This document shows, piece after piece, positions 5,457 through 22,205 of a stretch of 30,240 nt of DNA. The stretch's first letter is position 1. Each line of letters starts with the position of its first letter. Origin of the DNA: a virus; the IMG/VR virus record IMGVR_UViG_3300022902_000003. One strand, 5' to 3'. The notes beneath the pieces are model-generated. The model was not told the origin of the DNA. It was given only the letters and a program-made list of their open reading frames with translations, and did not search any database. The translations under genes and the position numbers were made by a program.

Positions 5457-5457
5457 T

Positions 5458-5736: not shown

Positions 5737-5808
5737 TACACATTTACATTTTACCCAGGGCCGGCACTCAATACGTAACTCAATTATTAATATTTTAAAC
5801 TCAAAGCA

Positions 5809-6549: not shown

Positions 6550-6816
6550 GGTGGGTTAAATGCTACTTATTTTCTACCATTATACATATAGTGTTGATAC
6601 TTAGGTGGGTTTTTTGTCCTGCCGGGATCACTTAAAGCCCCAAGTTTTTGGGGCTTTTTTTATGGTTTTGTAGTTGTACGCCCTAATAAATACCACCTTT
6701 TGGGTATATTGTTAATATAACCACCGTGCCCAACTATATAATAATATACATAAAAATACATATATTTTGCTACTTATTTCCTACCTTCGCAAAATTAACT
6801 CAAAAGGTAGAATAAA
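6550..6816. promoter_or_regulatory. attP-like non-coding region with arm-type repeat motifs upstream of the integrase
   Basis: 19-nt direct repeat TGCTACTTATTTYCTACC at 6561..6579 and 6768..6786. GGTAGAA (its partial complement) occurs twice at about 6806..6825. GGTGGGTT occurs at 6550 and 6604, opposed by ACCACC at 6692 and 6720. Confidence 0.45.
6634..6662 (+). terminator. Rho-independent terminator at the end of the lysis/late operon
   Basis: The stem is AAAGCCCCA / TGGGGCTTT with a 6-nt loop, followed by a run of 7 T. Confidence 0.8.
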
Positions 6817-7974
6817 TTGGTAGAAAAAAAAGCGCGATATCGCCTGGTATACGATCGTAAAAAGAAAGCTAAAGCAACTGGTAAGGGGTTAATTGAGATA
6901 TATGTATACCATAACCCGAAACAAAAAAAATATATTAGTACCAAAATATGGGTGCATCCAAGCGAGTGGGATACATCGCGGCAATTAGTGAACTCTAAAA
7001 ATGATAAATATATAGCTTATAACCTCAATTTAAAAACCAGTATTAACGATATTGAAACCTACGAACTTAAGCAATTAAACACCGGTAAGCCTTTTACAAT
7101 GGATAAATTAGGCCAGCATATTGCCGCCAAAGGTAATGAGCTTACGTTTACCGCTTTTTGGCATAATACATTAACAAAGGATATGAGCCTCCAGCCGGCT
7201 AGTAAACGCCCACAACGCCGAGCACTGGAATTATTAAAAGCGCATGCCGGCACGGTTAAATTTAGCGATATTAATTACCAGCTTATTAATACATTTGATA
7301 CTTATTTGCGGGGCGAGGGGTATGCCACTGGCACCATTTGGCGGGTACATAAGGATGTTAAAAAATATATTAACCTGGCTATTAATTACGATTATTTGGA
7401 TGTTTCAAAATACCCGTATCGTAAATTTAAAGTGGTTAAAGATCCGCAAAAACATATATACCTTAATTACACCGAGCTCGCGCAAATTGAGGAGGCCGAT
7501 TTATCGGGCGTGCCAAGCATCGAAATTATACGCGATATGTTTTTATTTCAGTGTTACACCGGGTTAAGGTACTCGGATGTACACCGGTTAAATGCCGCCG
7601 ATTTTGAGCAACGCCCCGAGGGTTTAACACTTATATTAACCAGGATGTATAAAGTAAACCGGCGGCTATTTTTAAGGCTTTGGGATATGTTTGATGGTAA
7701 GCCCCAGCGGCTAATTAAAAAATATATTGAAGTTACCCCACCCCCTAAATATCTTTTTGGCCGATATGTTGGCAATTCTGAATTGAACGGCGCATTACTC
7801 ATAATAAAGGATAAATTAGGGGTCCGTAAAAAAATAACCACACATGTAGGGCGCCACACTTTCGGCACATTGTATGCAAAACAAACGGGCTCGATTTTCG
7901 ACGTAATGAAAGCAATGGGTATTAGTAAATTTGAAACGGCGCAAATTTATATCGATCTTAGCGAGGAGCTATAA
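6817..7974 (+). CDS. int: Tyrosine integrase (Bacteroidota-type, Arm-binding N-terminus)
   Basis: 385 aa with a TTG start. The N-terminus is RYRLVYDRKKKAKATGKGLIEIYVY-type. Catalytic signature residues are GLRYSDV (R), HVGRHTFGT (H-x-x-R) and TAQIYIDL (Y). Confidence 0.9.
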   Translation: MVEKKARYRLVYDRKKKAKATGKGLIEIYVYHNPKQKKYISTKIWVHPSEWDTSRQLVNSKNDKYIAYNLNLKTSINDIETYELKQLNTGKPFTMDKLGQHIAAKGNELTFTAFWHNTLTKDMSLQPASKRPQRRALELLKAHAGTVKFSDINYQLINTFDTYLRGEGYATGTIWRVHKDVKKYINLAINYDYLDVSKYPYRKFKVVKDPQKHIYLNYTELAQIEEADLSGVPSIEIIRDMFLFQCYTGLRYSDVHRLNAADFEQRPEGLTLILTRMYKVNRRLFLRLWDMFDGKPQRLIKKYIEVTPPPKYLFGRYVGNSELNGALLIIKDKLGVRKKITTHVGRHTFGTLYAKQTGSIFDVMKAMGISKFETAQIYIDLSEEL

Positions 7975-8391
7975 TTTTAAATACTGTAAAGTGTACCCGT
8001 ATTTTTTGGCATACTCAATACAAAGCTCGTTAACTTTATTAAATGCTTTGGTGGCCATGTGGCCGGCGCCACGTTTTGCCATTTTTTCAGATCCGGCCAT
8101 AAAAAAAGCATTACCCGAAACCATGAGCTCGTTATCTTTTTGCCATGCCTCCAGGTTACCAGTATAATTATTATACGATTTATAAATTTTAAACTGGGTG
8201 GTGCGTAATATTTCGGGTGGCGCATCCACTGATAATATGCCCTTATTAACTAAAAATGTTTTAAGCTCGGGTAAATCGCCACCAATAACTTTAATGGTAT
8301 TACACTTTTTAAATGGCTGGTTAGCAACCTGGGCACCACAATAGATAAAAGTAAACAGTAATAAATTAAATAATATTACGCGCTTTTGCAT
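7969..8391 (-). CDS. Secreted protein or lipoprotein of the lysogeny block (moron candidate)
   Basis: 140 aa with the signal peptide MQKRVILFNLLLFTFIYCGAQV. It is convergent with int (6-nt overlap) and co-oriented with the repressor. Confidence 0.6.
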   Translation of the reverse strand: MQKRVILFNLLLFTFIYCGAQVANQPFKKCNTIKVIGGDLPELKTFLVNKGILSVDAPPEILRTTQFKIYKSYNNYTGNLEAWQKDNELMVSGNAFFMAGSEKMAKRGAGHMATKAFNKVNELCIEYAKKYGYTLQYLKL

Positions 8392-8576
8392 TGGTTTAAA
8401 TTATTTGAACATTTACACATTTCGCATTTATTACACATTTTGCGATAACTTATTGAGAGGTTGCAACCGTGGGCCTGATTACTCATACAACTTAATAAAG
8501 TATTATATTGTTTATCTTTTATTTTAAGTTGATCCGTTAAAAATTTAATTTGTTTCTGATAAAAAACCGTATACAT
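8376..8576 (-). CDS. Small Cys-rich protein (start taken at the internal Met; the ORF extends to 8636)
   Basis: MYTVFYQKQIKFLTDQLKIKDKQYNTLL...CNKCEMCKC. The helical motif resembles the repressor C-terminus EQIRVKDRQIEML. Confidence 0.4.
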   Translation of the reverse strand: MYTVFYQKQIKFLTDQLKIKDKQYNTLLSCMSNQAHGCNLSISYRKMCNKCEMCKCSNNLNQCKSA

Positions 8577-8647
8577 CTTAAAAGTTTTATAATTTATATA
8601 TAAAATTAATGTATCGGTTTGTGTCAAAAATAACAAATTTTTAACAA

Positions 8648-9040
8648 CTAGCCGGTTTTATGTATATTATTACTCCTTTTGTTTTTTTCGGTCTTTAATA
8701 AGTCGGTTAACATTTCAATTTGGCGATCTTTTACCCTTATTTGCTCCAGCAATAAGCTATTAATGTGCCTTAATTCGTCGGCCACGGTAATTTTTGAGTA
8801 CTCGCCAGTACCCTCACTTAATATATTACTGGGTTCGGCCAGGGGTATATCGAGCAACTCGTTTAATTTAACCCTGGCCGTGTGTTTTAGCCGGTTTTGT
8901 TTCATGGCCTTTAAAAAACCATTATACGAGTAACCAATTTGCTCGGCCAAATCGACAAGGCTTATGCCCTTGCCTTTTGCCACCCTTTTTATTTCGTTAT
9001 AATTCAGCACTTTATAAATTAATATGCATTTAATATACAT
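8648..9040 (-). CDS. CI-like repressor (XRE-type HTH plus a coiled-coil C-terminus)
   Basis: 130 aa with the HTH segment ISLVDLAEQIGYSYNGFLKAMKQ. It is divergent from the early operon. Confidence 0.7.
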   Translation of the reverse strand: MYIKCILIYKVLNYNEIKRVAKGKGISLVDLAEQIGYSYNGFLKAMKQNRLKHTARVKLNELLDIPLAEPSNILSEGTGEYSKITVADELRHINSLLLEQIRVKDRQIEMLTDLLKTEKNKRSNNIHKTG

Positions 9041-9046
9041 TTTTAC

Positions 9047-9077
9047 TTGACAAATGTGTGTTTATAGTTTATATTTG
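9047..9077 (+). promoter_or_regulatory. Candidate early promoter, TTG-N20-TATATTTG
   Basis: TTG at 9047..9049 and TATATTTG at 9070..9077 match the Bacteroidota -33/-7 consensus (TTG ... TAnnTTTG). They lie 40 nt upstream of the ATG at 9117. Confidence 0.4.
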
Positions 9078-9101
9078 CCGCTTGTTAATATTTATTTAGT
9101 A

Positions 9102-9132
9102 CAAATATATACATAAATGCAAGCCAACGCAA
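9102..9132 (-). promoter_or_regulatory. Candidate repressor-side promoter, TTG-N20-TATATTTG on the minus strand
   Basis: The reverse complement of 9102..9109 is TATATTTG. The reverse complement of 9130..9132 is TTG, with a 20-nt spacer. It faces the plus-strand promoter. Confidence 0.35.
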
Positions 9133-9512
9133 TACCACAAATGCACCAAAATGCATTAAGCCCTCGCGAGCTCGAAATAATATATTATTTAGCTTGGGGC
9201 TTTTCTGATAAAGAAGTAGCGCACCAGCTTAATATATCAACTCACACCGTACGAACCCACCACGGTAATATTAATATAAAAACAAACTCGCGTAACCTGG
9301 CCGATGTGGCACGCTGGTATTTTGAAACCCATACCACCCAAAGCTTTGGCATACGCCCCACACTGGCCCGTATAATGGCCGTATGTGTGTTTTTATTATT
9401 AATTGTTATTGGCGAGTTAATTAATAGCCCCATGATCCGTACCCGTTCGATTAAAACGGCAAAGGTGGCACGCCGCGCCAGGGCAAAACGAAATAATACA
9501 CTCACAATATGA
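9117..9512 (+). CDS. LuxR/GerE-type HTH regulator with a C-terminal TM anchor (cro-position gene)
   Basis: 131 aa. LSPRELEIIYYLAWGFSDKEVAHQLNISTHTVRTHHGNI is GerE-like. It also has the hydrophobic helix IMAVCVFLLLIVIGELI and a basic tail. Confidence 0.7.
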   Translation: MQANAIPQMHQNALSPRELEIIYYLAWGFSDKEVAHQLNISTHTVRTHHGNINIKTNSRNLADVARWYFETHTTQSFGIRPTLARIMAVCVFLLLIVIGELINSPMIRTRSIKTAKVARRARAKRNNTLTI

Positions 9513-9694
9513 AAATTAAATTTTTCAAAGCTCGAGTAATGCTCGATATACAAGTGGATATAAACCGCGAAGTTGATTACACCCAAAAGGATGTAACCGA
9601 GGCCGAAATAATTGCCGAGCTTAAAAAGAAATATGGCCCAAAGGCCGAAATATACCTTTACACCAAACGCGAACAAATACCAATAACCCCATAA
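9509..9694 (+). CDS. Hypothetical early protein
   Basis: 61-aa ORF with an ATGA overlap to the upstream gene, same operon. Confidence 0.5.
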   Translation: MKIKFFKARVMLDIQVDINREVDYTQKDVTEAEIIAELKKKYGPKAEIYLYTKREQIPITP

Positions 9695-9695
9695 T

Positions 9696-9974
9696 ATGGA
9701 AGTAGCAACAAAAACCGATTTTATCGAGCTGGCCGATAGTCTTAACTCTAAAATAGACACCCTTATGAGCCTTATTACAACCAAGGCCGATACCAGTAGC
9801 CGCGTGCTTAACAGTATGCAAATACGTGAGCGCCTTAATTTGAGTTACCAATCGTTTCAAAATAAATTAGAGGGCCTTGTATCCGCTGGCATGTTTAAAG
9901 ATGGCCACTGGAAAATGCGCGAGGCCGATTTAGAAATTTATATAAACCAAAAAATTAGTAAAAATGGAAACTAA
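9696..9974 (+). CDS. Excisionase-like / HTH_17-like DNA-binding protein candidate
   Basis: 92 aa. MQIRERLNLSYQSFQNKLEGLVSAGMFKDGHWKMREADLEIYI resembles the excisionase-family winged HTH pattern by eye. Confidence 0.45.
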   Translation: MEVATKTDFIELADSLNSKIDTLMSLITTKADTSSRVLNSMQIRERLNLSYQSFQNKLEGLVSAGMFKDGHWKMREADLEIYINQKISKNGN

Positions 9975-10236
9975 AAAAAAGGTGCCCGTTACCGTGCCAC
10001 CGCCGGAGTTATTAACTATTAATCAAATACTCGATAAATTCGACCAGGTGCCAATTGATGCCATGAGCGCCCCCCTGGGCCGGATACGCCAAAACCTTAT
10101 TAACGATAAAAGGAGCCACCCAAAAGGTGGGTTAATTAAGGAGCCAAACACACAAATGATTTTGTTTTTAATTGAGGCAAGTATTAAAAACGATTCAAAC
10201 CGCACCGAAACCGCCGCCCATGCCCACGCTATTTAG
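9964..10236 (+). CDS. Hypothetical early protein
   Basis: 90-aa ORF in operon context. No motif was recognised. Confidence 0.5.
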   Translation: METKKKVPVTVPPPELLTINQILDKFDQVPIDAMSAPLGRIRQNLINDKRSHPKGGLIKEPNTQMILFLIEASIKNDSNRTETAAHAHAI

Positions 10237-10381
10237 TAGCCGGCCCATCGATATATTAAAGGAACATACCGCCCTCCAAAAGCGCATGCGTGCCCGGGCA
10301 ATTGAGTTTAAAAAAGCACTTAAAAAGTTAAAAGAAAATGGAAACAACCACAAAAAAACCATCGCAATGCGATCGAATTAA
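10220..10381 (+). CDS. Hypothetical small basic helical protein (start uncertain; the ORF opens at 10172)
   Basis: MPTLFSSRPIDILKEHTALQKRMRARAIEFKKALKKLKENG... It overlaps both neighbouring ORFs. Confidence 0.35.
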   Translation: MPTLFSSRPIDILKEHTALQKRMRARAIEFKKALKKLKENGNNHKKTIAMRSN

Positions 10382-10553
10382 AAGCGCCCTCGAGCGTGGC
10401 GATAGCCTTACCGGTATGCAAATATTAACCCGGTTTAATTGTCTTAATTATAAGGGCCGTATTTCTGATTTAAGGAGCTCCGGCGTAGCCATTAAAACCG
10501 AAATGATTAAAACCACCAGCGGCAAACGCGTTGCCCAATATAGTTTGGTATGA
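10338..10553 (+). CDS. Small winged-helix DNA-binding protein (HTH_39-like)
   Basis: 71 aa. The pattern is SALERGDSLTGMQILTRFNCLNYKGRISDLRSSGVAIKTEMIKTTSGKRVAQYSL, which is typical of this phage HTH family by eye. Confidence 0.55.
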   Translation: METTTKKPSQCDRIKSALERGDSLTGMQILTRFNCLNYKGRISDLRSSGVAIKTEMIKTTSGKRVAQYSLV

Positions 10554-10786
10554 GTATATTATTAACCCACCTTACACATACAAAAAGGTTATTAAGTGAT
10601 GCCCGCAAGTATAATATACCAGCCACGGCAATAATTAAGCATGTGGCCCAAATTGAGCGGCTAATTAAACGGGCTAGTTGTTTACACAACCCAATACCAA
10701 AACCATTTAAAACCGTACGCAGTACCGGTATAATATGGAAATGCGAAAAATGCAATAAAATAACCGGTATCGAAACAAACCCATAA
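10550..10786 (+). CDS. Hypothetical protein
   Basis: 78-aa ORF with an ATGA overlap to the upstream gene and a single CEKC motif near the C-terminus. Confidence 0.5.
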   Translation: MSILLTHLTHTKRLLSDARKYNIPATAIIKHVAQIERLIKRASCLHNPIPKPFKTVRSTGIIWKCEKCNKITGIETNP

Positions 10787-10790
10787 AATT

Positions 10791-11165
10791 ATGATCCTCG
10801 CGCCTTTTGCCATACCCGCTACGGTAAATATAACCTCACTTGAAAATTATTTTAAATTACCCCCTGGATCTATATTAAAAAAAACGCGCGTACGTGAAAT
10901 ATTAATGCCTCGCCAAATAGCTATTTGGTTGGACCACCACGAATACATGGAAAAATACCACGTGGTGGGCTGGAGTATAATAGCGCGAGCATATAATTTC
11001 GATAGGGCCTCAATACGGCATAGCGTTAAAACTGTAAACGACGATCTTAATAATAAGCTATATAAAAAAATGATGTACGATATACAAACTAAAATATATG
11101 GCCAAGTACGGTACCCTCACGCGCCCCAGGTAACCCCAGTTAAAAAACGAATTTCAATTTATTAA
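10791..11165 (+). CDS. DnaA C-terminal (domain IV)-like DNA-binding protein
   Basis: 124 aa. YFKLPPGSILKKTRVREILMPRQIAIWL...FDRASIRHSVKTV aligns by eye with E. coli DnaA domain IV ([28 protein letters not shown]...RDHTTVLHACRKI). Confidence 0.65.
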   Translation: MILAPFAIPATVNITSLENYFKLPPGSILKKTRVREILMPRQIAIWLDHHEYMEKYHVVGWSIIARAYNFDRASIRHSVKTVNDDLNNKLYKKMMYDIQTKIYGQVRYPHAPQVTPVKKRISIY

Positions 11166-11176
11166 GATTAGATAAA

Positions 11177-11992
11177 ATGGCAACCCCCACACTAAACGGC
11201 TACGATTTAACGCGCAACTGGTTCGATTTTTGTTTTGAAAACCCCGAACTTATAAAGCCATTACATACGGCCATTTATTGCTTTGCAATTGAACATTGCA
11301 ACCGCCTGGGCTGGAAAACAAAATACGGTTTTCCTTCACAAATGACCATGGACGCCATCGGCGTAAAAAAATACCAAACTTATATAAAGCATTTTAACGA
11401 GTTAATTGAATGGGGGTTTTTTGATCTTATACAAAAATCGAAAAATCAATACTCGGCAAATATAATTAGCCTTGTAAGTGCTATGCCAAAAAACGGCAAA
11501 GCAGTGGGCAAAGCATTGGATAAAGCAATTATAATGCATGGGGCAAAGCATGGGGTAAAGCAAGGTAAAAGCACCGGGCAAAGCAAGGACAGTATAAATA
11601 AACCAGTAAACAATAAACCAATAAACCAACAAACCAATAAACAAGTTACCGAGGCAAGCACGGTATACAATCAAATTAGAAAAATATTTTTAGATGAATT
11701 TAAAGAATTTACAAATACCGCATATTATTTTGAGGGCCGCGATGGGGCCAAAATTAAAAGCATAATAAAAAAAATAAAGCACGCATATAAAGCAAAGAAA
11801 AACCCGGCGCCCACCGATACCCAAATACTCGATGGCTTTCGGCATATACTTAACCGCGCAATGGCCGATGAATGGATAGCCGACCGCCTCACACTTTCAA
11901 TAATTGATAGCCAGTTTAATAAGTTAAAAATAGGTAAAAATGCAAAAAAAGAAAATCTCATTAGCGAAGTACTTGCCGATATTAACGGTTAA
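11177..11992 (+). CDS. Replication organizer / initiator candidate (DnaD- or DUF4373-like N-terminus) with internal iterons
   Basis: 271 aa. The N-terminal winged-helix-like region is NWFDFCFENPELIKPLHTAIYCFAIEHCNRLGW. It follows the DnaA-like gene and contains DNA-level repeat arrays. Confidence 0.5.
   Translation: MATPTLNGYDLTRNWFDFCFENPELIKPLHTAIYCFAIEHCNRLGWKTKYGFPSQMTMDAIGVKKYQTYIKHFNELIEWGFFDLIQKSKNQYSANIISLVSAMPKNGKAVGKALDKAIIMHGAKHGVKQGKSTGQSKDSINKPVNNKPINQQTNKQVTEASTVYNQIRKIFLDEFKEFTNTAYYFEGRDGAKIKSIIKKIKHAYKAKKNPAPTDTQILDGFRHILNRAMADEWIADRLTLSIIDSQFNKLKIGKNAKKENLISEVLADING
11493..11585. repeat. Iteron-like array A: about 8 copies of GG(C/T)AAAGCA at 11-12 bp spacing
   Basis: The AAAGCA ends fall at 11503, 11515, 11527, (11538, degenerate), 11550, 11562, 11573 and 11585. 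The motif falls in all three codon phases. Confidence 0.6.
11598..11644. repeat. Iteron-like array B: 8-bp tandem repeat A(T/C)AAAC(C/A)A, about 6 units
   Basis: Units occur at 11598, 11606 (degenerate), 11613, 11621, 11629 and 11637. The period is not a multiple of 3. An AT-rich stretch follows to about 11730. Confidence 0.6.
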
Positions 11993-12026
11993 TAACGTAA
12001 GTGAATTAACAGCCCGAGCCACAACC

Positions 12027-12554
12027 ATGGCAAAAATGTGGGATAGCGTCGAACCGTCGTTTATACGGATAAAAAAAGAACTTGGCGAAAAGGTTGTAAA
12101 ATCAATTATAGCCACCGAACTAGGCAAAATGGTTGATTTACTAAAGGCCGATATGCAAAAGGAACATGTTTTGTATATGGTAAATTATATCCTCCAGCAT
12201 TATTATAGTTATACAATAAGCGATTTAACCGTATTAACCGATCGCCTGGTAAAAAACAACCCATACGGCAAGCCAATAATGCAAAACTTAATATACGAAC
12301 TCGATCAATATAGTATTGACAAACAAGAGTACGCCGTCGATCAACATATAAAAGAAACCAACCAGCATAAACACAATACTATTAACCAGGATGTAAATAA
12401 TAAGATCCTTAAAATTTACGACAAAATGAAAGCCAAAGCACGCGAGCCACAACCAACCCAAAAACAAAAGGACCAGGCCGCCCAGGATGCCAACACCGAA
12501 AAAATAAAAGAATTACAACGGTTATACCCACAAAGTAAAATGAACCATGGATAA
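12027..12554 (+). CDS. Hypothetical early protein (the ORF opens at 11940; the Met at 12027 avoids overlap)
   Basis: 175-204 aa ORF with a K/Q/E-rich C-terminus. No motif was recognised. Confidence 0.55.
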   Translation: MAKMWDSVEPSFIRIKKELGEKVVKSIIATELGKMVDLLKADMQKEHVLYMVNYILQHYYSYTISDLTVLTDRLVKNNPYGKPIMQNLIYELDQYSIDKQEYAVDQHIKETNQHKHNTINQDVNNKILKIYDKMKAKAREPQPTQKQKDQAAQDANTEKIKELQRLYPQSKMNHG

Positions 12555-12768
12555 TATTTGCATTGCCACCCAAAAAAATAAAGGGTTACAAATGTGGGCG
12601 GCACGTTTAAATATCCATCAAAAGGAATTAAAAAGAAATTTAGAGTTTACTGGCTACGATAAAGAATTTAACAAACTCAAATGGAAAACTATAAAATCAA
12701 ATATAAAATACCATACCCGGCTAATAACAAAATGCCGCGAACGCATCGAATATTTTAAAGCAAAATAA
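12547..12768 (+). CDS. Hypothetical basic protein
   Basis: 73-aa ORF in operon context. Confidence 0.45.
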   Translation: MDNICIATQKNKGLQMWAARLNIHQKELKRNLEFTGYDKEFNKLKWKTIKSNIKYHTRLITKCRERIEYFKAK

Positions 12769-12773
12769 AAGCT

Positions 12774-13106
12774 ATGCCAACATTTCCAAAGTCAAAAAAA
12801 CGCCCATGGGTGCCCGAGCATAAAGCACAAACCGGCCGTAAGGTAACCAACCCATTTTACCATACCACGGCATGGCGTAATTTTCGCAATGCATACATAA
12901 AAGCGCACCCCCTTTGTGTTGATTGTTACCAGCTCGGTAATACCCGCACCGGTAACGTAGTGGACCATATACGGCAAATAAACCCCACCGATGCATATAA
13001 TACAGCCTTTGGCCATTATGGCGAGCCATTGGATGAAAGTAACGTGCAAACACTTTGCACACACCACCACGCAGTTAAATCAGGTAAAGAAACATGGAAA
13101 AAATAA
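12774..13106 (+). CDS. HNH endonuclease (packaging-associated type)
   Basis: 110 aa. CVDCYQLGNTRTGNVVDHI ... LCTHHHAVKS is an HNH zinc-finger pattern. It lies upstream of the P27-type TerS, as in HK97-like cos phages. Confidence 0.85.
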   Translation: MPTFPKSKKRPWVPEHKAQTGRKVTNPFYHTTAWRNFRNAYIKAHPLCVDCYQLGNTRTGNVVDHIRQINPTDAYNTAFGHYGEPLDESNVQTLCTHHHAVKSGKETWKK

Positions 13107-14017
13107 ACACGCCCCCCGATCCATATAAACTAATAAAGAAATTTTTAGCCGAGCGCGACGTCGTAAAGCTAAGTAAACGGCAATACGAGTTTAATATTAA
13201 CCGCTTTGTTACCTGGGCAATGCTCCAGGGTAAAAGCTTTGGCGAGCTCGGTATATCCGACGTACTTAAATATAAACAAAGCTTATTAGATGAAAACAAA
13301 ACCGACTTAACAGTAGCCTCATATATGACCACCTTAAAACTATTTTACGGTTGGTTAGCCATTAACGATATTACCCAGGATCTAACCACCAGCATAAGAA
13401 TAAACAGAACATACCGCACGTTTCGTAAACGCTCGCTAAGTATGGACCAGGCGAACGCACTATTAAAAACATTCGATCTTAAAACCCCAGGCGGTAAACG
13501 CGATTATGCAATAACTAATTTAATGTTACGTAACGGCTTGCGTGAGATTGAAGTTACCCGCATGAATGTGGGCGATATAATCGATTACAACCCCAAGCAA
13601 AAAGCAATAGTAATACAGCGCAAAGGTAAAACCGAGAAGGATGCCACCATACCATTATCAACAAAAGCCGAGGAGGCCATAGTAGATTACTTACTCGCCC
13701 GCCCTGGTAACTGGCAAGATACCGACCCGTTATTTATATCGTACGCTCGCCGAAATAAAAATAAAAGGTTAATACCCCACCATATAAGCGTTATGATTAA
13801 GCGGCATTTAATTGCCTCCGGTATTAACCACCCCATGGTTACGGCTCACAGCTTACGCCATACAGCCGCCACAATATTATTAGCATCCGGCTTAAACGAG
13901 TACGATGTAATGGTATTCATGGGGCACTCAAATTTTGCAACCACACAAATATATACACGACAAAAAGAAAAGGAAATGATTTTTAATAAAAACATAATCA
14001 AAAGCTTAGATTATTAG
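13094..14017 (+). CDS. Second tyrosine recombinase, XerC/XerD-like
   Basis: 307 aa with an N-terminal SAM-like core-binding domain. Catalytic motifs are GLREIEV (R), HSLRHTAAT (H-x-x-R) and GHSNFATTQIYTR (H..Y). Confidence 0.9.
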   Translation: MEKINTPPDPYKLIKKFLAERDVVKLSKRQYEFNINRFVTWAMLQGKSFGELGISDVLKYKQSLLDENKTDLTVASYMTTLKLFYGWLAINDITQDLTTSIRINRTYRTFRKRSLSMDQANALLKTFDLKTPGGKRDYAITNLMLRNGLREIEVTRMNVGDIIDYNPKQKAIVIQRKGKTEKDATIPLSTKAEEAIVDYLLARPGNWQDTDPLFISYARRNKNKRLIPHHISVMIKRHLIASGINHPMVTAHSLRHTAATILLASGLNEYDVMVFMGHSNFATTQIYTRQKEKEMIFNKNIIKSLDY

Positions 14018-14018
14018 C

Positions 14019-14053
14019 TAGTTGTAATATATCAGTGCATTATATTACAATTA
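14019..14053. repeat. lox-like inverted repeat: 13-bp arms (12/13 match) around a 9-bp asymmetric spacer
   Basis: TAGTTGTAATATA-TCAGTGCAT-TATATTACAATTA, starting 2 nt after the recombinase stop. A third half-site, ATTACAACC, lies at about 14165..14173. Confidence 0.55.
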
Positions 14054-14226
14054 CCTCCTGGCGCTGGTTTTTGAAAATAAAAAACATTTTAAGGGGGGTG
14101 CTATTTTTAAAAAATGAATATAATTATTTGAAAATTAATACAATAGGTAGGGGGGTTGAAAAATTACAACCTTTAATTTAGTAATCGCTTGCCTAGTCTT
14201 TTTTTTATATATGCAAAATTAGGAAA

Positions 14227-14754
14227 ATGCCAAAAGGAAGGAAACCAACACCAACGGCTTTAAAAAAATTAAGGGGCACCACTCAACCATGCCGAGAAAA
14301 TAAAAACGAACTGGTTGGCTCGCCACTTATAAAATTACCGTCGGCGCCAAGGTGGTTTAAAAAAAACGCCCGTAAAATTTACCGGGCCAAGGGTAAACAA
14401 TTACAAAATTTAAGCCTTTTAACCATCCTCGATTTAGAGTTATTCATTTCTTTTTGCCGTGAGTATGGTAATTATTTAGATACATCGGCCGAGCTCGATA
14501 ATTATGGCGTTAATAATACGCTCGATTTTCTCGCCAAAATAGATTTTGAGCGTATACCCCTCGAGAAAAAAGACGATGTAATGGAGGCATTAATGTTTGG
14601 CGAGGATCTTATTTTAAAAAGAATACAAAAAATTAATAAAGAAAGTTGGGAGCGGTCCAAAATATTAGCCTCCGAGTTTGGTTTTACACCCAGTGCCCGT
14701 ACAAAAATAGCAATGCCCGCCGGCGATAACGATGGCGATAACGATTTTGATTAA
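14227..14754 (+). CDS. terS: Terminase small subunit, P27 family
   Basis: 175 aa. The N-terminus MPKGRKPTPTALKKLRGT is characteristic of P27-family TerS. The C-terminus is acidic. Confidence 0.85.
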   Translation: MPKGRKPTPTALKKLRGTTQPCRENKNELVGSPLIKLPSAPRWFKKNARKIYRAKGKQLQNLSLLTILDLELFISFCREYGNYLDTSAELDNYGVNNTLDFLAKIDFERIPLEKKDDVMEALMFGEDLILKRIQKINKESWERSKILASEFGFTPSARTKIAMPAGDNDGDNDFD

Positions 14755-14763
14755 TAAAAAATT

Positions 14764-14964
14764 ATGATGAAAGTACAAAATATAAAAACATTAACCCACG
14801 CCAATAGGTTTTGCGAGGGCACTATAAATGATTTTGAAACCGGCATAAGCACAAAGGCCGAAACCATGGCCGCGCTTGGCGAATATACCGCGCATTTAAT
14901 GGGGTTGTTTTGGGAAAACGCCAAAGCTAGAATAAAAGCGAACCCCTCATTATTACTAGATTAA
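14764..14964 (+). CDS. Hypothetical protein, first ORF of the terS-terL insertion
   Basis: 66-aa ORF. No motif was recognised. Confidence 0.5.
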   Translation: MMKVQNIKTLTHANRFCEGTINDFETGISTKAETMAALGEYTAHLMGLFWENAKARIKANPSLLLD

Positions 14965-14987
14965 TTAAACCCTTTAAATATATACAC

Positions 14988-15983
14988 ATGAACATTTTAT
15001 TATTAGCACAAAACAAATTTGACACCACCAGCTTTTACCGCGCCAATGGCGTATTTGGTAATTTAAGTAAACAACTCAAGGGTAATATTTCCATTACCTC
15101 AATGGATCACAAAAATATGAGCCTATCGTGGGCCGATCTTATGTTATACGATGTGGTGGTAATGCAACGCCCCTACGACGATAGTTTTAAACGCCTCGCC
15201 GTTTACATTAAAGATTTAAACATACCGCTTTGGATTGACTACGACGACAACCTCCTAGCCGTACCACCCGACAATAAACAATATGTACTATATTCAGACC
15301 CGGCAATAATCGCAAACGTAACCGGCTTTTTAGCCATGGCCGACGTTGTAACCGTATCAACTCACGGGTTAAAAAAGGCTTTCGATAAATACAACCCCCG
15401 CATTGAAGTGGTGCCAAATGCTTTTAACCAGGATCTATTTAATTACCGCGATATTAAAAAGCGAAATGATACCGTATTATGGCGCGGCTCCGAAACCCAC
15501 CAACTCGATTTAATGACACACACCGTGCAACTAGTTGAGCGCATCGCCGAGTTAAGTAATTGGAAATGGCATTTTTGTGGGTGGTACCCTTGGATGTTAG
15601 CCTCGCCAAATGTTAAAAATTTATACCACTCGCCCGTTGCCGACGTTGTACCCTATCATAAAAATATACACAACGTGGCACCCAAGGCCATGATAGTACC
15701 ACTAGCCAACCATTTATTTAACCATTGCAAAAGTAACATTGCGGCGCTCGAGGGTATATTTGCCGGGGCCGTTTGCATTGTACCCAACTGGGAGGAGTGG
15801 CAAATACCTGGTACTTTAAAGTACGATAACCCCGCCGAATTTAGCCAGCACATACAAGATATTTACCACGGCCGGGTTAAGATAAAAGAAAATAACGATA
15901 CCGCCTGGGAGTACATTAACGACGTTTACCCACTCAATAAAATAAACAAAAAACGTATTGAAATATTAAACTCGTTAGTATGA
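14988..15983 (+). CDS. Putative GT-B fold glycosyltransferase
   Basis: 331 aa. It has two Rossmann-like halves, an acidic WIDYDDNL segment, and a C-terminal KSNIAALEGIFAGAVCIV resembling the GT1/GT4 E-x7-E region by eye. Confidence 0.55.
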   Translation: MNILLLAQNKFDTTSFYRANGVFGNLSKQLKGNISITSMDHKNMSLSWADLMLYDVVVMQRPYDDSFKRLAVYIKDLNIPLWIDYDDNLLAVPPDNKQYVLYSDPAIIANVTGFLAMADVVTVSTHGLKKAFDKYNPRIEVVPNAFNQDLFNYRDIKKRNDTVLWRGSETHQLDLMTHTVQLVERIAELSNWKWHFCGWYPWMLASPNVKNLYHSPVADVVPYHKNIHNVAPKAMIVPLANHLFNHCKSNIAALEGIFAGAVCIVPNWEEWQIPGTLKYDNPAEFSQHIQDIYHGRVKIKENNDTAWEYINDVYPLNKINKKRIEILNSLV

Positions 15984-16615
15984 AAAAATTAACCGGTGCC
16001 GGCGTCGCAAACCAAAGTTACCGCGATGCCGAGCACGCCAAAAGTTTTACATACGATAATTTGGCCGGCGATTTTCCAACAACCAAATTAACATTTAAGG
16101 CCAACCCGTATAATAAAAAAATACTGGCCGCAAAAAATGTACTTGATTTTGGGTGCGGCGTGGGCCGTAATTTGCATTGGGTAATGCACAACACCCGCGC
16201 CCATTATTACGGTATTGATACCAACCCCGATATGCTTAAATACTTTTGGGTGGTTAATAAACACTTACTCAAATTTAAGCGCCGGGTTACCATCGCTAAC
16301 AATTTTGATTTTCTTTTTAACACCATCGATGTGGTATTAATTACGTTTGTATTTCAACATATTGTAAACCGGTTACCACCCGAGGTAATGAACATTAACG
16401 ACATTACCACCGCAATAAAAAGCCACTGCAAAAAAAATGCCGTGTGGCTTATGCTGGAGCACGAAAGCGAGGCACCAGGATGGCAAGCCACTTGGCTCGC
16501 CGCCAACCAAATTACCCCCGATGTATATATAAAAAATTACACAACCCCGGCGCTATGCCACCAACGCGAGTTATGCGATCGAGGCCCTCACAATTTAATA
16601 ATATTTAAAACATGA
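15980..16615 (+). CDS. Class I SAM-dependent methyltransferase
   Basis: 211 aa. Motif I is VLDFGCGVGRN, with motif-II/III-like segments downstream. Its start overlaps the upstream stop (ATGA). Confidence 0.8.
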   Translation: MKKLTGAGVANQSYRDAEHAKSFTYDNLAGDFPTTKLTFKANPYNKKILAAKNVLDFGCGVGRNLHWVMHNTRAHYYGIDTNPDMLKYFWVVNKHLLKFKRRVTIANNFDFLFNTIDVVLITFVFQHIVNRLPPEVMNINDITTAIKSHCKKNAVWLMLEHESEAPGWQATWLAANQITPDVYIKNYTTPALCHQRELCDRGPHNLIIFKT

Positions 16616-17289
16616 ACTTTTTACATAAACCAAAGTTAGGCGATACAATTTACTCGTTACCACTCATTAAACATTTGGGTGGTGGCGTGCTTTATTTAGA
16701 TCCGGTTAGTACACATTTTGAAGGCCAGGCCGAGCACTGGATAAAACAATTTAATTGGCTTATGCCATTAATAAAAGCCCAGCCATATATCGAGGATGTA
16801 AAAATTCACAACGGCGAGCCCATCGATATGGACCTCGATAAATATATGGATACCACCCACCTAACCGCATACGATACCGTTAATATAGTTGATAACCATT
16901 TTATTGCCCAGGGTATAAAGCCACCGCCATACGCGCCGTGGTTAACGTGCAATCGAGAAGGGTTTGAAGTGTATACAATTGTAGCAAACAGCGATAACCA
17001 CCACGACGATAAAGTGGATTACACCACTATTTTAAAGGATATAAATTTTTTATTTGTGGGCACCTTCGCCGAAATTACAGCCTTTAAAAGCCGCACCGGT
17101 ATAACAGATTTTTTATACCAGGTGCCCGGCGACGCCTTGCACCTTGCCGAGATAATTAACGCGTGCACGCATTTTATTGGTAACCAAAGCTTACCCCTGG
17201 CCATTGCTTTGGGCCTTGGTAAAAAGTGTTACGTTGAACAATCGCCATTATATCCTAATTGTATAATGGGAAATTATAACCGACTTTAA
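16612..17289 (+). CDS. Compact GT9 (heptosyltransferase)-like glycosyltransferase
   Basis: 225 aa. The N-terminal KLGDTIYSLPLIKHL and C-terminal HFIGNQSLPLAIALGLGKKCYV resemble the GT9 motifs (GD..l..P.l..Lk and GNDSGPMHLAAALG.P) by eye. It is ATGA-coupled to the methyltransferase. Confidence 0.55.
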   Translation: MNFLHKPKLGDTIYSLPLIKHLGGGVLYLDPVSTHFEGQAEHWIKQFNWLMPLIKAQPYIEDVKIHNGEPIDMDLDKYMDTTHLTAYDTVNIVDNHFIAQGIKPPPYAPWLTCNREGFEVYTIVANSDNHHDDKVDYTTILKDINFLFVGTFAEITAFKSRTGITDFLYQVPGDALHLAEIINACTHFIGNQSLPLAIALGLGKKCYVEQSPLYPNCIMGNYNRL

Positions 17290-17299
17290 CATTATAGAT

Positions 17300-17533
17300 A
17301 TGGAAAATATTGATACATCTTATGGCACCGGCCGCCGGGTAATGGCCGAGGAAATGATCGCATATTGCGAAAAGAAAATAACCGAAATAAACGCCCACCC
17401 CAAAAGCCCACACATAGCCATACACAATAAACGCGTTGGGTTAATTACCGCGTATGGTAATATTATCGACCGGCTCAATATTAAGTTAAAAAGGATGGCC
17501 GCCAAACTCGAAACCCTAAACCCTAAACAATAA
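17300..17533 (+). CDS. Hypothetical protein
   Basis: 77-aa ORF. No motif was recognised. Confidence 0.5.
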   Translation: MENIDTSYGTGRRVMAEEMIAYCEKKITEINAHPKSPHIAIHNKRVGLITAYGNIIDRLNIKLKRMAAKLETLNPKQ

Positions 17534-17536
17534 CCA

Positions 17537-17683
17537 ATGAACCACTCTAAACTAGCAAACAAATACCTTACCGGTTTAACTGGTATCGAAATTGGTGGCG
17601 CCGCCCCCCAACCCAACAACTCAGATAAAGAGTTTACCACTCAGAACCATTTTTACAACCAACCCCACAACCAAAAACCGTAA
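17537..17683 (+). pseudogene. 48-aa ORF, possible N-terminal remnant of a second methyltransferase
   Basis: MNHSKLANKYLTGLTGIEIGGAAPQPN... The L.G..GIEIGG segment resembles the start of some glycan-cluster SAM methyltransferases. The rest is a Q/P/N-rich tail. This is a weak call made by eye. Confidence 0.25.
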
Positions 17684-17688
17684 CCCCC

Positions 17689-19266
17689 TTGCCAAACCAA
17701 CACAAATACCACTTTGATAAATTCGCCGCCGATCGCGCCGTAACCTGGATTGAGAAATATATTACCCACGTTAAAGGCGAGCACCAGGGTAAACCCCTTA
17801 TACTCGAGCCCTGGCAAAAAAATGATATTGTACGCCCCTTATTTGGTTGGAAGGATAACATTACAAAGCTCCGAAAGTACCGCACCGTATACGTAGAAAT
17901 ACCACGTAAAAATGCAAAAAGTACGTTAGCCGGTGGCATTGGTTTATACTTGTTAATGAACGATGGCGAACCCGGTGCCGAAATATACAGCGCCGCCGCC
18001 GAGCGTGGCCAGGCTGGTATAATATTCGATATTGCAAAGCGTATGGTAACCCAGCGTAAAGCCCTGGCCTCGCGTGCAACCCCGTACCGTAATTCAATAA
18101 CCTACGAAAAAACCGGCTCATTTTATAAAGCCATAAGTGCCGACGCCCATACCAAACACGGGTTTAATGCCCACGGTATTGTATTCGATGAATTTCACAC
18201 ACAAAAAACCCGCGCGCTTTACGATGTATTAACCACATCCGTAGGCTCGCGCCGCCAACCCGTAATACTTTTATTAACCACCGCCGGTAACGATCGTACC
18301 TCAATATGTTACGAACTCCATGAATACGCCCGCAAGGTCCTGGAGGGTATAATAATCGACGATACATTTTTACCCGTAATATACTCGGCCGATAAAGAAC
18401 TCGATATTTTTGCCGCCACCACCTGGAAACTCGCCAACCCAGGGTATGGCTCAATAGTTAAAACCGATTACATACGGGCCGCCGCCAACAAAGTAAAAAA
18501 CAACCCAAACAACGAAAACGCATTTAGGCAATTACATTTAAACCAGTGGACCAGCTCCATATACTCATGGGTGCCCGATCATACCTGGATGGCGTGCAAC
18601 CTGGGCGAAATAAACCCCGACGATTTTAAGGGGTGCGATGTTGTGCTCGGCCTCGACCTTGCCAGCACCGACGATACAACCAGCCTCGCCATAATATTTT
18701 TAGATGGCCTTACACCAATAGGTATTATGCCATACATTTGGGTACCCGAGGAAATGATCGAGCGGCGTAAAGCTCGCGGCGATATGCTATACTTTAATTG
18801 GCAAAGCCAGGGCGTACTACATGTTACCCCTGGCAACGTAACCGATTACCGCGTAATTGAAAAAACCATACTCGATATAAACGAGCAATTTAATATTGTA
18901 CGCATTGGGTTTGATAAATGGAACTCCAGCCAATTAATAATAAACCTGGCCGATAATATCGATGGCGAAATATTCGATAAAGTCGAAATGAATATAGGAA
19001 CCCTAAGCGAACCCACCAAGCGCTTTTACAAACTCATAAAAAACAAAGCAATAAACCACGGCGGGCACCCCGTATTACGCTGGATGTTGAGCAACGTAAT
19101 GATATACCAGGATACAAACGAAAACATACGCCCCAGTAAAAAATCGAGCACCGATAAAATTGATGGCATAATGGCCGTAATTGTAGCACTTACCGCCCTT
19201 TGGAGCCGCCCACTGGAGGAGGATATTAATAAACGATTTGCCACCGAAGGCTTTGCAACAAGTTAG
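17689..19266 (+). CDS. terL: Terminase large subunit
   Basis: 525 aa. The TTG at 17689 is the only in-frame start upstream of the conserved N-terminus (an in-frame TAA lies at 17626). It has a Walker A-like PRKNAKST, a Walker B-like GIVFDEFH and a C-terminal nuclease-like region. Confidence 0.9.
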   Translation: MPNQHKYHFDKFAADRAVTWIEKYITHVKGEHQGKPLILEPWQKNDIVRPLFGWKDNITKLRKYRTVYVEIPRKNAKSTLAGGIGLYLLMNDGEPGAEIYSAAAERGQAGIIFDIAKRMVTQRKALASRATPYRNSITYEKTGSFYKAISADAHTKHGFNAHGIVFDEFHTQKTRALYDVLTTSVGSRRQPVILLLTTAGNDRTSICYELHEYARKVLEGIIIDDTFLPVIYSADKELDIFAATTWKLANPGYGSIVKTDYIRAAANKVKNNPNNENAFRQLHLNQWTSSIYSWVPDHTWMACNLGEINPDDFKGCDVVLGLDLASTDDTTSLAIIFLDGLTPIGIMPYIWVPEEMIERRKARGDMLYFNWQSQGVLHVTPGNVTDYRVIEKTILDINEQFNIVRIGFDKWNSSQLIINLADNIDGEIFDKVEMNIGTLSEPTKRFYKLIKNKAINHGGHPVLRWMLSNVMIYQDTNENIRPSKKSSTDKIDGIMAVIVALTALWSRPLEEDINKRFATEGFATS

Positions 19267-19297
19267 GAAATGTTAAATTTTAAAAGCTAAATGATAA

Positions 19298-19516
19298 ATG
19301 AAAGCCAACCCCCTCACACCCCGCGCCAAAACACTCATAACCGTAAAGGGTTACGATAAAGCATTTACAACACTGTTAAGCGATCCACGCATACCAACAC
19401 AAAAAGCCGCTTACGATCAACTCGAGGATGAATATATAAAACACTTTGGCCGCCGCCGTTACTCAAATTTTGCCAGTTACCGCCACGCCCGTAACTATCG
19501 ACTTAAAAGAAAATAA
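19298..19516 (+). CDS. Hypothetical basic protein
   Basis: 72-aa ORF between terL and the portal gene. Confidence 0.5.
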   Translation: MKANPLTPRAKTLITVKGYDKAFTTLLSDPRIPTQKAAYDQLEDEYIKHFGRRRYSNFASYRHARNYRLKRK

Positions 19517-19544
19517 TTATATTTGATAACTTAAATTTACACCC

Positions 19545-20057
19545 ATGAAATTAAAACTTTCCTCGTACCAAAAACTAAAACAAGAAAACCAAAAATTATT
19601 ACAAGATATATATAACCTGGTAAAACTCGAGGACCAGGCGCCAGGGATAAAAACCCGATTAGAATATAATATTTATTTTAAAATTGAGGAGTTAACATTT
19701 GCCGGCACCGCCACCCCAAAGCAACCAACTGGTATATTAAACCAATGCCCACCATTTGAACCCCCACAAAACAAACCCATGAATAAATTACAAAAAGCAA
19801 TATACGAAACCGCTAAACCATTAATACCCGAGTTACGCGAGCGAGTTAAAAATATAAAATTTGAAAGCCGATATATTGCATTTCCTTTTTTCCATGGTTC
19901 AGTTATCGACTATTTAATATTTGATAAAGAGGCAAACGATTTTACAAAAATCGAGTATAGTTTAGCCATCGGTACCGCCGTACAACTCGAGGGCATGCAA
20001 GATGAATGTTACACCGATGAAGTTAAAACCGAAACATTTTATTTACCTGGCTACTAA
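19545..20057 (+). CDS. Hypothetical protein
   Basis: 170-aa ORF with an N-terminal coiled-coil-like segment. It is followed 7 nt later by the conserved hairpin element. Confidence 0.55.
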   Translation: MKLKLSSYQKLKQENQKLLQDIYNLVKLEDQAPGIKTRLEYNIYFKIEELTFAGTATPKQPTGILNQCPPFEPPQNKPMNKLQKAIYETAKPLIPELRERVKNIKFESRYIAFPFFHGSVIDYLIFDKEANDFTKIEYSLAIGTAVQLEGMQDECYTDEVKTETFYLPGY

Positions 20058-20063
20058 TCACAC

Positions 20064-20090
20064 CACTAGCGCGCGAATGTTTCGCGTGCT
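20064..20090 (+). repeat. Conserved GC-rich hairpin element, copy 1
   Basis: CACTAGCGCGCGAATGTTTCGCGTGCT. The stem is GCGCGCGAA / TTCGCGTGC (one G-U pair) with a TGT loop. Confidence 0.75.
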
Positions 20091-20223
20091 TATTTCAACC
20101 CAAAAATTAACAACCTTATTTAATTAACATTTAATAACATAGCCACTTATTACCACCCCACCGTATAAAAACATGTTAATACAAACGTAACATTGTTACC
20201 ACAATTTTTTTAATACCTCGCCA

Positions 20224-20231
20224 TACATTTG
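20224..20231 (+). promoter_or_regulatory. Candidate -7 box TACATTTG upstream of the portal gene
   Basis: It matches TAnnTTTG and lies 40 nt upstream of the ATG at 20271. No well-spaced TTG -33 element was seen. Confidence 0.25.
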
Positions 20232-20270
20232 GCCCTTTGATTATCGAAAATCGATTAACCACTCAAATGC

Positions 20271-21527
20271 ATGGATAATGTAAAATACAGATTTTTAGGT
20301 ATACCAATTTGGGAAAAACGCAGTGGTAACCTTGGTACATTTAAAGCGCCAAGCTCCAGGCTCGTTGATATAATGGGCGGCGAAAGTAGCACCGGCATGG
20401 CCGTAACTCAAAACACCGCGCTAACCTTTTCGGCCGTGTGGGCATGCGTTCGTATAATTTCCAACACCGTGGCCATGTTACCCTTTGGCGTTTACAAAAC
20501 CGATAGCAATGGCGAAAAGCACCGAACCCCAACCCACGCCAGCCACCGGCTTATACACTCCGAACCCAACCAAATACAAAGCTCGTTTACATGGCGCCAG
20601 GTAATGCAAGCCCACGCAACCCTTAAAGGCAATGCGTACTCAATTATAAAACGCAATGCAATGTTTCGCCCGGTTGAGTTAAAACTAATATCAAACCCCG
20701 ATCATGTAACCCCTTACGAGTTTGAGGGCGATTTATATTATAAAATACAAGGTTACGATAAACCTTTTTTAGCCTCCGATATTTTCCATATACGCGGCCT
20801 GGGTTTTGATGGCCTCGCCGGTAAATCAGTATTAAGCGTTGCCCGCGAAAGTATAGGCAGTGCCCTGGCAATGCAAAAGTATGGTGGCACTATTTTTAAA
20901 AATGGCGGTGCCAAACGTGTGGCCCTTATGCACGACACCGTTGTAAAAGATGCTAACGTACGTAAAAATATTACCGATAGTTGGAATAATACATACGGCG
21001 GCCCCGACAAATTAAACAAAGTGGCGTTAATTGATGCCGGTTTTAAAGTGCAAGAAATTGGCATGAACCCCGAAGACGCCCAATTTATTGGCTCGCGTGA
21101 GTTTAGCGTAAACGAAATTGCCCGGTACTTTGGTTTAATAATGGATCTATTGGCAACCGATAACAACCCCACTTATGCCAGCGCCGAGCAACGCGCACTC
21201 GATTTTATTAAATACACCATGACCCCGTGGCTCGTAACCTGGGAAAGTGAAGTAAACCGCAAATTATTTCCTGACCGCGAGAAAGATACATTTTACTCAA
21301 AGTTTACATTAGAAGGTTTATTACGTGGCGATGCCGCGGCCCGTGCCCAGTATTACAAAGATATGTTTTACATTGGTGCACTTTCGCGCGATGAAATACG
21401 CCAACTTGAGGACCGTAATAAAATTGCCGGTGGCGAAAAATATTACTTACAAAGTAACATGGCCGAGGCCGACAAGCTCCAGGATATACACAACAAAAAT
21501 AATACTCCGAAAAATGAAAACAGTTAA
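20271..21527 (+). CDS. Portal protein, HK97 family
   Basis: 418 aa. The AVWACVRIISNTVAMLPFGVYK-type segment and the overall pattern match HK97-family portals by eye. It is followed by the protease and capsid genes. Confidence 0.9.
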   Translation: MDNVKYRFLGIPIWEKRSGNLGTFKAPSSRLVDIMGGESSTGMAVTQNTALTFSAVWACVRIISNTVAMLPFGVYKTDSNGEKHRTPTHASHRLIHSEPNQIQSSFTWRQVMQAHATLKGNAYSIIKRNAMFRPVELKLISNPDHVTPYEFEGDLYYKIQGYDKPFLASDIFHIRGLGFDGLAGKSVLSVARESIGSALAMQKYGGTIFKNGGAKRVALMHDTVVKDANVRKNITDSWNNTYGGPDKLNKVALIDAGFKVQEIGMNPEDAQFIGSREFSVNEIARYFGLIMDLLATDNNPTYASAEQRALDFIKYTMTPWLVTWESEVNRKLFPDREKDTFYSKFTLEGLLRGDAAARAQYYKDMFYIGALSRDEIRQLEDRNKIAGGEKYYLQSNMAEADKLQDIHNKNNTPKNENS

Positions 21528-22164: not shown

Positions 22165-22205
22165 ATAAATCACAATAAAACACTTTACAATTAAATACTT
22201 TAAAA

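Follow-up and report, generated by a model that had tools for sequence, protein, structure and literature searches.

What does a tyrosine recombinase do as the last gene before the cohesive ends of a phage genome that already encodes an integrase elsewhere? The question is posed by the IMG/VR virus record IMGVR_UViG_3300022902_000003, a stretch of 30,240 nucleotides from a temperate marine Bacteroidota phage, referred to here in its entirety as the window, in which an open reading frame at 13094..14017 on the plus strand encodes a 307-amino-acid Xer-type tyrosine recombinase, hereafter Rec, and in which an inverted repeat stands directly behind the Rec stop codon. The original prediction, made from the letters of the window alone, had paired the recombinase with this repeat as its core site; the element recurs beside Rec in related phages, and a cognate core site is therefore plausible. 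Our answer, offered tentatively and at somewhat less than an even chance, is that Rec and its site form a self-contained module, of the Cre/lox or Xer/dif kind, that interconverts monomers and multimers of the phage genome, where both the binding of Rec to the post-stop site and the outcome of the reaction are what we infer. The parts of the proposed module are as follows:

13094..14017, plus strand: Rec, 307-amino-acid Xer-type tyrosine recombinase, the final gene ahead of the cohesive-end site (cos)
14019..14031, plus strand: left-hand arm of the putative core site, TAGTTGTAATATA
14032..14040, plus strand: asymmetric 9-bp centre, TCAGTGCAT, whose outer bases TCA and AT are part of the conserved core
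14041..14053, plus strand: right-hand arm of the putative core site, TATATTACAATTA; five species share TTATA at 14040..14044 without change

Rec matches the Phage_integrase catalytic domain (PF00589) at E 4.5e-30, and its N-terminus gives weak matches to the SAM-like families PF13495 and PF02899 (E ~1e-3, under the Pfam gathering scores), the latter being present on Rec homologues in precomputed annotation. When aligned with 13 homologues (14 sequences, with identity down to 35%), residues R150, H252, R255, H278 and Y287 are invariant, as are two candidate lysines, K177 and K182. Because the catalytic residues are invariant in this alignment the enzyme should be active, and Rec is predicted to be catalytically complete, which bears out the earlier claim of a second complete tyrosine recombinase at this position. 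Its best relatives of solved structure in the PDB are XerA (E 2.8e-16) and XerD (E 1.7e-12), no chain of Cre appears among its PDB matches at E <= 1e-3, and the NCBIfam XerD and XerA models match it at E ~1e-36. Rec is thus Xer-like in architecture, yet it is not an orthologue of XerC or XerD: its scores with the NCBIfam models for XerD, XerA and XerC are 112-125 bits against cut-offs of 220-335 (TIGR02225, 123.9 bits against 329.6; TIGR02224, 112 against 335). In contrast to the 385-amino-acid integrase of the same genome, Rec gave no match to the Arm-DNA-bind domain in a Pfam scan. The end of the preceding HNH endonuclease gene overlaps the start of Rec by 13 nt, and Rec is therefore probably co-transcribed with this packaging gene.

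The stop codon of Rec (TAG, 14015..14017) is followed by a single C at 14018 and then, from 14019 to 14053, by an inverted repeat of 13-bp arms around a 9-bp centre. The arms agree at 12 of 13 positions, the sole mismatch being a G opposite a T, and the centre is asymmetric, just as the original prediction had described its lox-like repeat. Throughout the genome this is the sole repeat with 13-nt arms, at least 12 matches and a spacer of 3-12 nt, and its position is unusual (shuffle p ~0.01 inside 110 nt past the Rec stop). Taken alone, however, the repeat is statistically unremarkable at genome scale, and its real support is comparative. Copies of the arm with up to 3 mismatches number 32 in the window against 24 +/- 5 expected, and with up to 1 mismatch only the two arms themselves are found. 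There being no further arm copy in the window, inversion or excision inside one genome is excluded, and readings of Rec as an invertase or as part of a shufflon were rejected on the grounds of a single site per genome. The third half-site that had been proposed downstream, ATTACAACC at 14163..14171, is present but is a chance-level match inside the conserved block around cos: pairs of 14 nt at 86% identity are numerous within the same 2 kb, and ATTACAACC is not conserved in relatives. A search of Rfam gave no meaningful match.

The comparative support comes from two directions, the first being the conservation of sequence. Across five species in which Rec is 50-57% identical, just two islands are conserved between the Rec stop and the small terminase subunit gene terS. 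Island 1 lies right behind the stop and has the core (A/T)ATCA-N5-ATTATA, within which TTATA does not vary; island 2 is the cos block, comprising GGGTAGGGGGT, AAAAAAT, TAGTAAT directly followed by CGGTTGCCTAGTCTTTTTT, and then ATGCAAAA. Of 72 unique loci from the gut Bacteroidales clade, 30 have the motif AT[GT]A-N7-ATTAAT no more than 80 nt from the Rec stop (for example AGTCGTATGA-tacagtgat-TAATACGACT), against a background of 0.0013 per 80 nt, and one clade has a different palindrome, TACATAGTACTATGTA. The second line of support is the geometry of the repeats. Among 62 non-redundant post-stop regions, searched for repeats whose arms match at 9 or more of 12 positions, odd spacers of 3, 5, 7, 9, 11 and 13 nt were each found at 7 to 12 loci, where ~2.4 would be expected, and even spacers at 1 to 3. 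Repeats centred on a base would be the pattern expected of a site bound by a protein dimer of fixed geometry, unlike hairpins generally.

It is here that the simplest competing explanation must be weighed, namely that the repeat is mainly an RNA hairpin, a terminator or processing signal that ends the HNH-rec transcript before cos, with the target of Rec lying elsewhere, for example in the host genome or at a site that went unrecognised. The repeat begins 2 nt past the stop codon, its one arm mismatch would pair as G-U in RNA, and the RNA fold of 14005..14085 lengthens the stem and places UUUUU after its base (-16.3 kcal/mol, z -1.9); in a relative (contig L011) the same place is taken by a weak hairpin with a T-run behind it. 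The extended fold and its U tract are nevertheless not conserved in relatives, the stem is rich in A and U, with 12 of 200 shuffles folding equally well, and a scan for consensus terminators did not report the repeat. The pattern of conservation is also the reverse of that expected of a hairpin, with the bases flanking the loop conserved and the outer stem variable; in the gut clade the motif is strongly conserved although the arms are too poorly matched to form a stable hairpin; and an excess of odd spacers is not expected of hairpins. We therefore regard a primarily transcriptional role for the repeat as unlikely.

The surroundings of the repeat add a second element that the original prediction had overlooked: the 209-bp region between Rec and terS contains the cohesive-end site of the phage. 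The features that define it, and the neighbouring genes, are these:

14186..14195, unstranded: cosN, 10 nt, CGCTTGCCTA, missing from right-end and left-end contigs
14070..14099 and 14127..14156, plus strand: two 30-nt direct repeats, 57 nt apart, TTTGAAAAT...GGGGGGT, cos-proximal, each ending in GGGGGGT
12774..13106, plus strand: HNH endonuclease (PHROG HNH families, E 9.4e-19), preceding Rec in most related loci
14227..14754, plus strand: small terminase subunit terS (PF05119, E 3e-10; phrog_83, E 8e-26)
6817..7974, plus strand: IntDOT-type integrase of 385 amino acids with arm-binding, SAM_5 and catalytic domains

L003 and L004, independent contigs of the same phage, both stop at 14185, and L003 runs past this position straight into Illumina adapter (AGATCGGAAGAGC). 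Contigs from two other species (L008 and L013, with Rec 56% and 50% identical) stop at the homologous ...TA(G)TAAT, and contig L227 begins at 14196. The absence of CGCTTGCCTA from contigs of both ends is what end-polishing of a 10-nt 3' overhang would produce, and it is from this that we infer the polarity of the overhang. The repeat behind Rec sits 133-167 nt to the left of cosN, and between them lie the two 30-nt repeats, which may be bound by the small terminase subunit. Every clade retains the G-run block, a possible recognition element for terminase. Adapter ligation at 14185 means that the virion has cohesive ends and not hairpins. A protelomerase, or telomere resolvase, was considered for Rec and rejected, as the protein is only 307 amino acids long and Xer-like and the centre TCAGTGCAT is non-palindromic.

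The window as a whole is a circularly assembled phage genome with 30,113 bp of unique sequence. Its exact 127-bp terminal direct repeat (1..127 and 30114..30240) is an assembly overlap from a circular or concatemeric template. From cos, the gene order runs through terS; a glycosyltransferase, a methyltransferase and an unknown; terL, portal, protease, capsid and tail genes; lysis genes; the IntDOT-type integrase; leftward regulatory genes and early genes; and lastly HNH and Rec. HNH endonucleases are packaging accessories typical of HK97-like cos phages. The block around cos (14147..14226), made up of the G-run, an A-run, TAGTAAT directly followed by CGGTTGCC, a T-run and ATGCAAAA, is kept across distant clades. 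Between terS and terL, the segment 14988..17289 holds a glycosyltransferase-like gene, an S-adenosylmethionine-dependent (SAM) methyltransferase and a 225-amino-acid unknown; among relatives, terS and terL follow each other directly in L011 and are separated by a different insert, of 196 amino acids, in L012, so that the gap resembles a variable slot for morons between the two terminase genes.

How far this arrangement extends was assessed by scanning an alignment of Rec over 185,579 species genomes and IMG/VR, followed by tblastn with the packaging proteins of the window. The order HNH, Rec, terS, terL, portal was found in dozens of loci, with Rec identity down to 30%, in prophages and viral contigs of Marinifilum, Alistipes, Parabacteroides, Tannerella, Rikenellaceae and other Bacteroidales. 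Three viral contigs of 33-38 kb (L117, L119 and L131) have Rec as their final gene, 110-260 nt from the contig end, and a fourth contig (L142) breaks 41 nt past the Rec stop. Adjacency to HNH is not universal, as L010 has five genes, including a second recombinase, between HNH and Rec; what is constant across the lineage is the order of Rec, conserved element and cos. Rec had been described as inserted between HNH and terS, a view that gives way to one in which it is the conserved, syntenic last gene of the right arm throughout the lineage. None of 43 phages with a TerL 41-50% identical to that of the window has a detectable Rec homologue upstream, and the idea of Rec as a general part of the HNH/terminase cos machinery was rejected on this count. 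No Rec homologue was found in INPHARED (GenBank phage records) at E <= 1e-20, and neither blastn of the region against deposited phage genomes nor a first viral scan with single-protein patterns found anything.

Some members of the lineage carry further genes of interest. A further small recombinase of ~268 amino acids, resembling XerA and integron integrases, is encoded in L010 (9198..10004), L014 (16..843) and L101 (6925..7752), directly upstream of Rec in the first two and ~2 kb upstream in the third; these phages thus have three tyrosine recombinases, and their post-stop site is nonetheless symmetric. L013 encodes an RVT_1 reverse transcriptase (1..159) near its tail and lysis genes, which probably belongs to a diversity-generating retroelement, an element not seen in the window.

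The constancy of the order raises the question of whether Rec acts at cos itself, as an architectural, regulatory or site-specific topoisomerase-like factor bound ~130 bp to the left of cosN, where it might help terminase to end packaging in the manner of cosQ or control late transcription across cos. Rec, site and cos keep an invariant order across clades, with the site ~100-260 bp from the right end of the genome, and Rec is probably co-expressed with HNH. The distance from the site to the G-run or cos block nevertheless varies between ~75 and 170 nt, which leaves no fixed phasing; the full catalytic set has been kept, which a purely architectural role would not need; and the TerL relatives in which no Rec homologue was detected still package their DNA. 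A direct role at cos is accordingly considered very unlikely.

If not at cos, Rec might act in integration, and the original prediction had listed a second integration specificity amongst its options. Stated fully, Rec and the repeat would be a second integration system with a simple attP next to its integrase and an alternative chromosomal site, an arrangement in keeping with the many simple integrative elements in which the site adjoins the recombinase gene. Related circular elements of ~9 kb, described below, bear in addition an HTH_17 (excisionase-like) gene. The loci themselves tell a different story. In all 53 phage-context loci in which HNH precedes Rec and the sequence continues for at least 4 kb beyond it, several of them on bacterial contigs of 100-577 kb, the packaging genes follow Rec contiguously and the site is never split. 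In the prophage L015 of the isolate Marinifilum flexuosum DSM 21950, an IntDOT-type integrase stands beside two tandem tRNA-Arg(TCT) genes, whilst Rec and its downstream region are intact 9 kb inside the prophage. Duplication of a tRNA gene beside an integrase is the classic mark of integration into tRNA genes, and it follows that this enzyme, not Rec, is likely to be the chromosomal integrator. More widely, the IntDOT-type integrase is the first gene of the provirus in relatives, adjoining duplicated tRNA-Arg genes, and in many of the loci with two recombinase reading frames the second one, a larger tyrosine recombinase, lies 6-9 kb upstream of Rec. The IntDOT-type enzyme at 6817..7974 is the probable chromosomal integrase of the window phage, and Rec, which has no arm-binding domain, is probably not the integrase. 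The search for an attB or junction that had been suggested was run with the 19-nt core and returned 16 matches in metagenomes and 31 in viral collections, all with unrelated flanks and without a Rec gene or a hybrid junction, a negative that is weak because the phage itself is absent from that metagenome collection and that is limited further by the host of the window phage not being identified. On balance, the use of the repeat as a second attP appears highly doubtful.

Beyond phages, the relatives of Rec point towards the maintenance of replicons. The most similar annotated proteins (35-37% identity) are encoded on circular plasmids of cultured Flavobacterium and Tenacibaculum (L309 and L310), and similar proteins occur on circular metagenomic elements of ~9 kb (L221-L225, 8-9.7 kb) from marine and freshwater samples. 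Each plasmid and circle has the gene order Rec, primase-helicase, ParA, and in these small circular replicons the recombinase gene is preceded, at a distance of ~200 bp, by a conserved palindrome, TCTTAATAC-TATTAAGA. This context suggests, without proving it, that Rec has its ancestry in multimer resolution. The replicon family as a whole (L221-L225, L309 and L310) is widespread, and besides the Rec homologue and ParA it encodes a DnaG-Toprim-DnaB_C primase-helicase, an HTH_17 protein and several proteins without assigned function. Rec homologues of 32-33% identity were also seen outside a phage context in metagenome-assembled genomes of Cytophagales and Fibrella (L032, L047, L051 and L070), where a very lox-like site with 14-bp arms and an 8-bp centre, TTCGACTTCCGTAA-tgtaatct-TTATGGAAGTCGAA, stands 10 nt past the stop and is present in at least two copies in one of these genomes.

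Such relatives invite the view that the module serves strictly for plasmid-type dimer resolution in an alternative, episomal state of the phage. The closest annotated homologues are indeed plasmid-borne and stand beside helicase and ParA genes, and a relative in an isolate assembly of Parabacteroides acidifaciens fills a 34.4-kb scaffold that is a single viral contig in IMG/VR. That scaffold (scaffold48 of strain 426-9, 34,414 bp; L061/L116) is filled entirely by the Rec-bearing relative, and could represent excised or episomal DNA, or a mere assembly break. The plasmid-prophage option, also present in the original prediction, fares poorly when the window itself is considered, as neither the precomputed Pfam annotation over 3094..24017 nor scans of ten proteins show a gene for ParA/ParB or for plasmid replication, and its relatives hold an integrase with an adjacent tRNA target. 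A dedicated plasmid-prophage function is in our view quite improbable.

For the preferred reading, the interconversion of genome monomers and multimers, a mechanism can be proposed. The target of Rec would be the single core-type site behind its own gene, with inverted arms of ~13 bp and an asymmetric centre of odd length. With both arms bound by Rec dimers, a site would pair with a second such site, carried by another genome copy or by the same multimer, and strand exchange in the central region would then fuse or separate whole genomes. Through this reaction, circular phage DNA would pass between monomeric and multimeric forms. Two uses can be envisaged: firstly, Rec could resolve dimers that arise from theta replication or in an episomal phase; secondly, it could supply the two-cos multimers required for cos packaging, as packaging in lambda requires dimers or concatemers. 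The single site per genome, the intact catalytic centre, the lack of use as a junction and the plasmid relatives all fit such a module, and the overlap of Rec with HNH, implying co-expression with a packaging gene, suggests that its role leans towards the packaging stage. Of the functions that the original prediction had entertained, the handling of dimers or concatemers in the style of Cre/lox is thus the one that fits best, with second integration and the plasmid-prophage state not supported.

Several observations weigh against this proposal. Why a cos phage that integrates should need to resolve dimers is not obvious, and their resolution would oppose packaging; the 43 TerL relatives in which Rec was not detected indicate that the HNH/terminase machinery can do without it; and genes for partition or plasmid replication are lacking in the annotation and scans given above. 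The 9-bp centre of the site exceeds the usual 6-8 bp, and full 13-bp arms are clear in the window and L010 only, with partial arms in L008 (9 of 12 matches around a 9-nt centre) and the core alone retained in L011 and L013. Statistically, shuffled genomes average 0.6 repeats of equal quality and 22 of 60 shuffles hold at least one; generic enrichment of repeats behind Rec, as judged by shuffling, is weak (7 of 71 loci at p <= 0.05), a measure less informative than the parity of spacers and the sequence motif. Lastly, the element might alternatively be the terminator discussed above.

A more specific form of the monomer-multimer proposal would make Rec and its site a dedicated multimer-maker, recombining monomer circles into the two-cos substrates of terminase, and this we consider distinctly unlikely. 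It would be a replacement for the rolling-circle and homologous-recombination routes in a lineage whose replication module is minimal and in which genes for recombination or against nucleases are not recognisable. Were it true, it would account for Rec being co-transcribed with HNH and kept beside cos.

Should the adjacent site prove to be where Rec acts, a compact recombinase/site pair that does not serve integration would be carried by temperate Bacteroidota phages of a large lineage, uncultured to date, that spans marine and gut systems. It would offer a tractable case in which to establish the role of second tyrosine recombinases in phage late operons, a question raised for the Tyroviruses of Bacillus and left unanswered there (PMC9703825). 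Small lox-like recombinase/site pairs from Bacteroidota might, if so, also serve as genetic tools. The mapped cos, with its deduced 10-nt 3' overhang and conserved block, is useful for the annotation of these phages.

Amongst known systems, the mode of action proposed for Rec and its site is that of Cre/loxP, single-recombinase Xer/dif modules and ResD/rfsF. Cre/loxP of phage P1 likewise comprises a lone phage-encoded tyrosine recombinase and one nearby site with 13-bp inverted arms and an asymmetric centre, and the reaction proposed here would similarly join or separate whole genome copies. Rec, however, has no detectable sequence relation to Cre, the centre of its site is 9 bp as opposed to 8 in loxP, and the window phage is a cos phage with an integrase and a site by cos, whereas P1 is a headful-packaged plasmid prophage. 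The Xer/dif systems (archaeal XerA, XerS/difSL, XerH/difH and XerCD/dif) provide the best sequence relatives of Rec and share its two-domain layout, and the sites of XerS and XerH adjoin their genes. They differ in that Rec reaches only ~124 bits against equivalog cut-offs of 220-330, is borne by phages and not by chromosomes, and has a 13-9-13 site beside cos, in contrast to the 11-6-11 dif at the chromosomal terminus; nor is Rec known to be linked to FtsK, which controls recombination by XerCD at dif. Heterobivalent integrases of the lambda Int and IntDOT type, one of which the window phage possesses, belong to the same catalytic superfamily; Rec, by contrast, lacks their arm-binding domain and its site was never found as a prophage junction. 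The Flavobacteriia plasmids and ~9-kb circles, from the same phylum, combine the nearest annotated homologues with a palindrome close to the gene, but their palindromes lie upstream and differ in sequence, and the replicon is a plasmid.

The nearest described situation, likened to ours by arrangement and not by sequence, is that of gp50 in the Tyroviruses of Bacillus, a Xer-like recombinase of unresolved function that is transcribed with the late genes in phages that have other recombinases, and that is followed immediately past its stop codon by an inverted repeat with 11-bp arms and a 6-bp core (PMC9703825). Tyroviruses nevertheless infect other hosts and have genomes of 160-170 kb, in which gp50 lies between the neck and tape-measure genes and not at cos. 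Literature searches returned no description of the Rec-site-cos arrangement in Bacteroidota phages. New here are the conserved order of Rec, site and cos over a wide lineage of these phages, the 9-bp centre of odd length, and the coexistence of Rec with a tRNA-targeting integrase of the IntDOT type.

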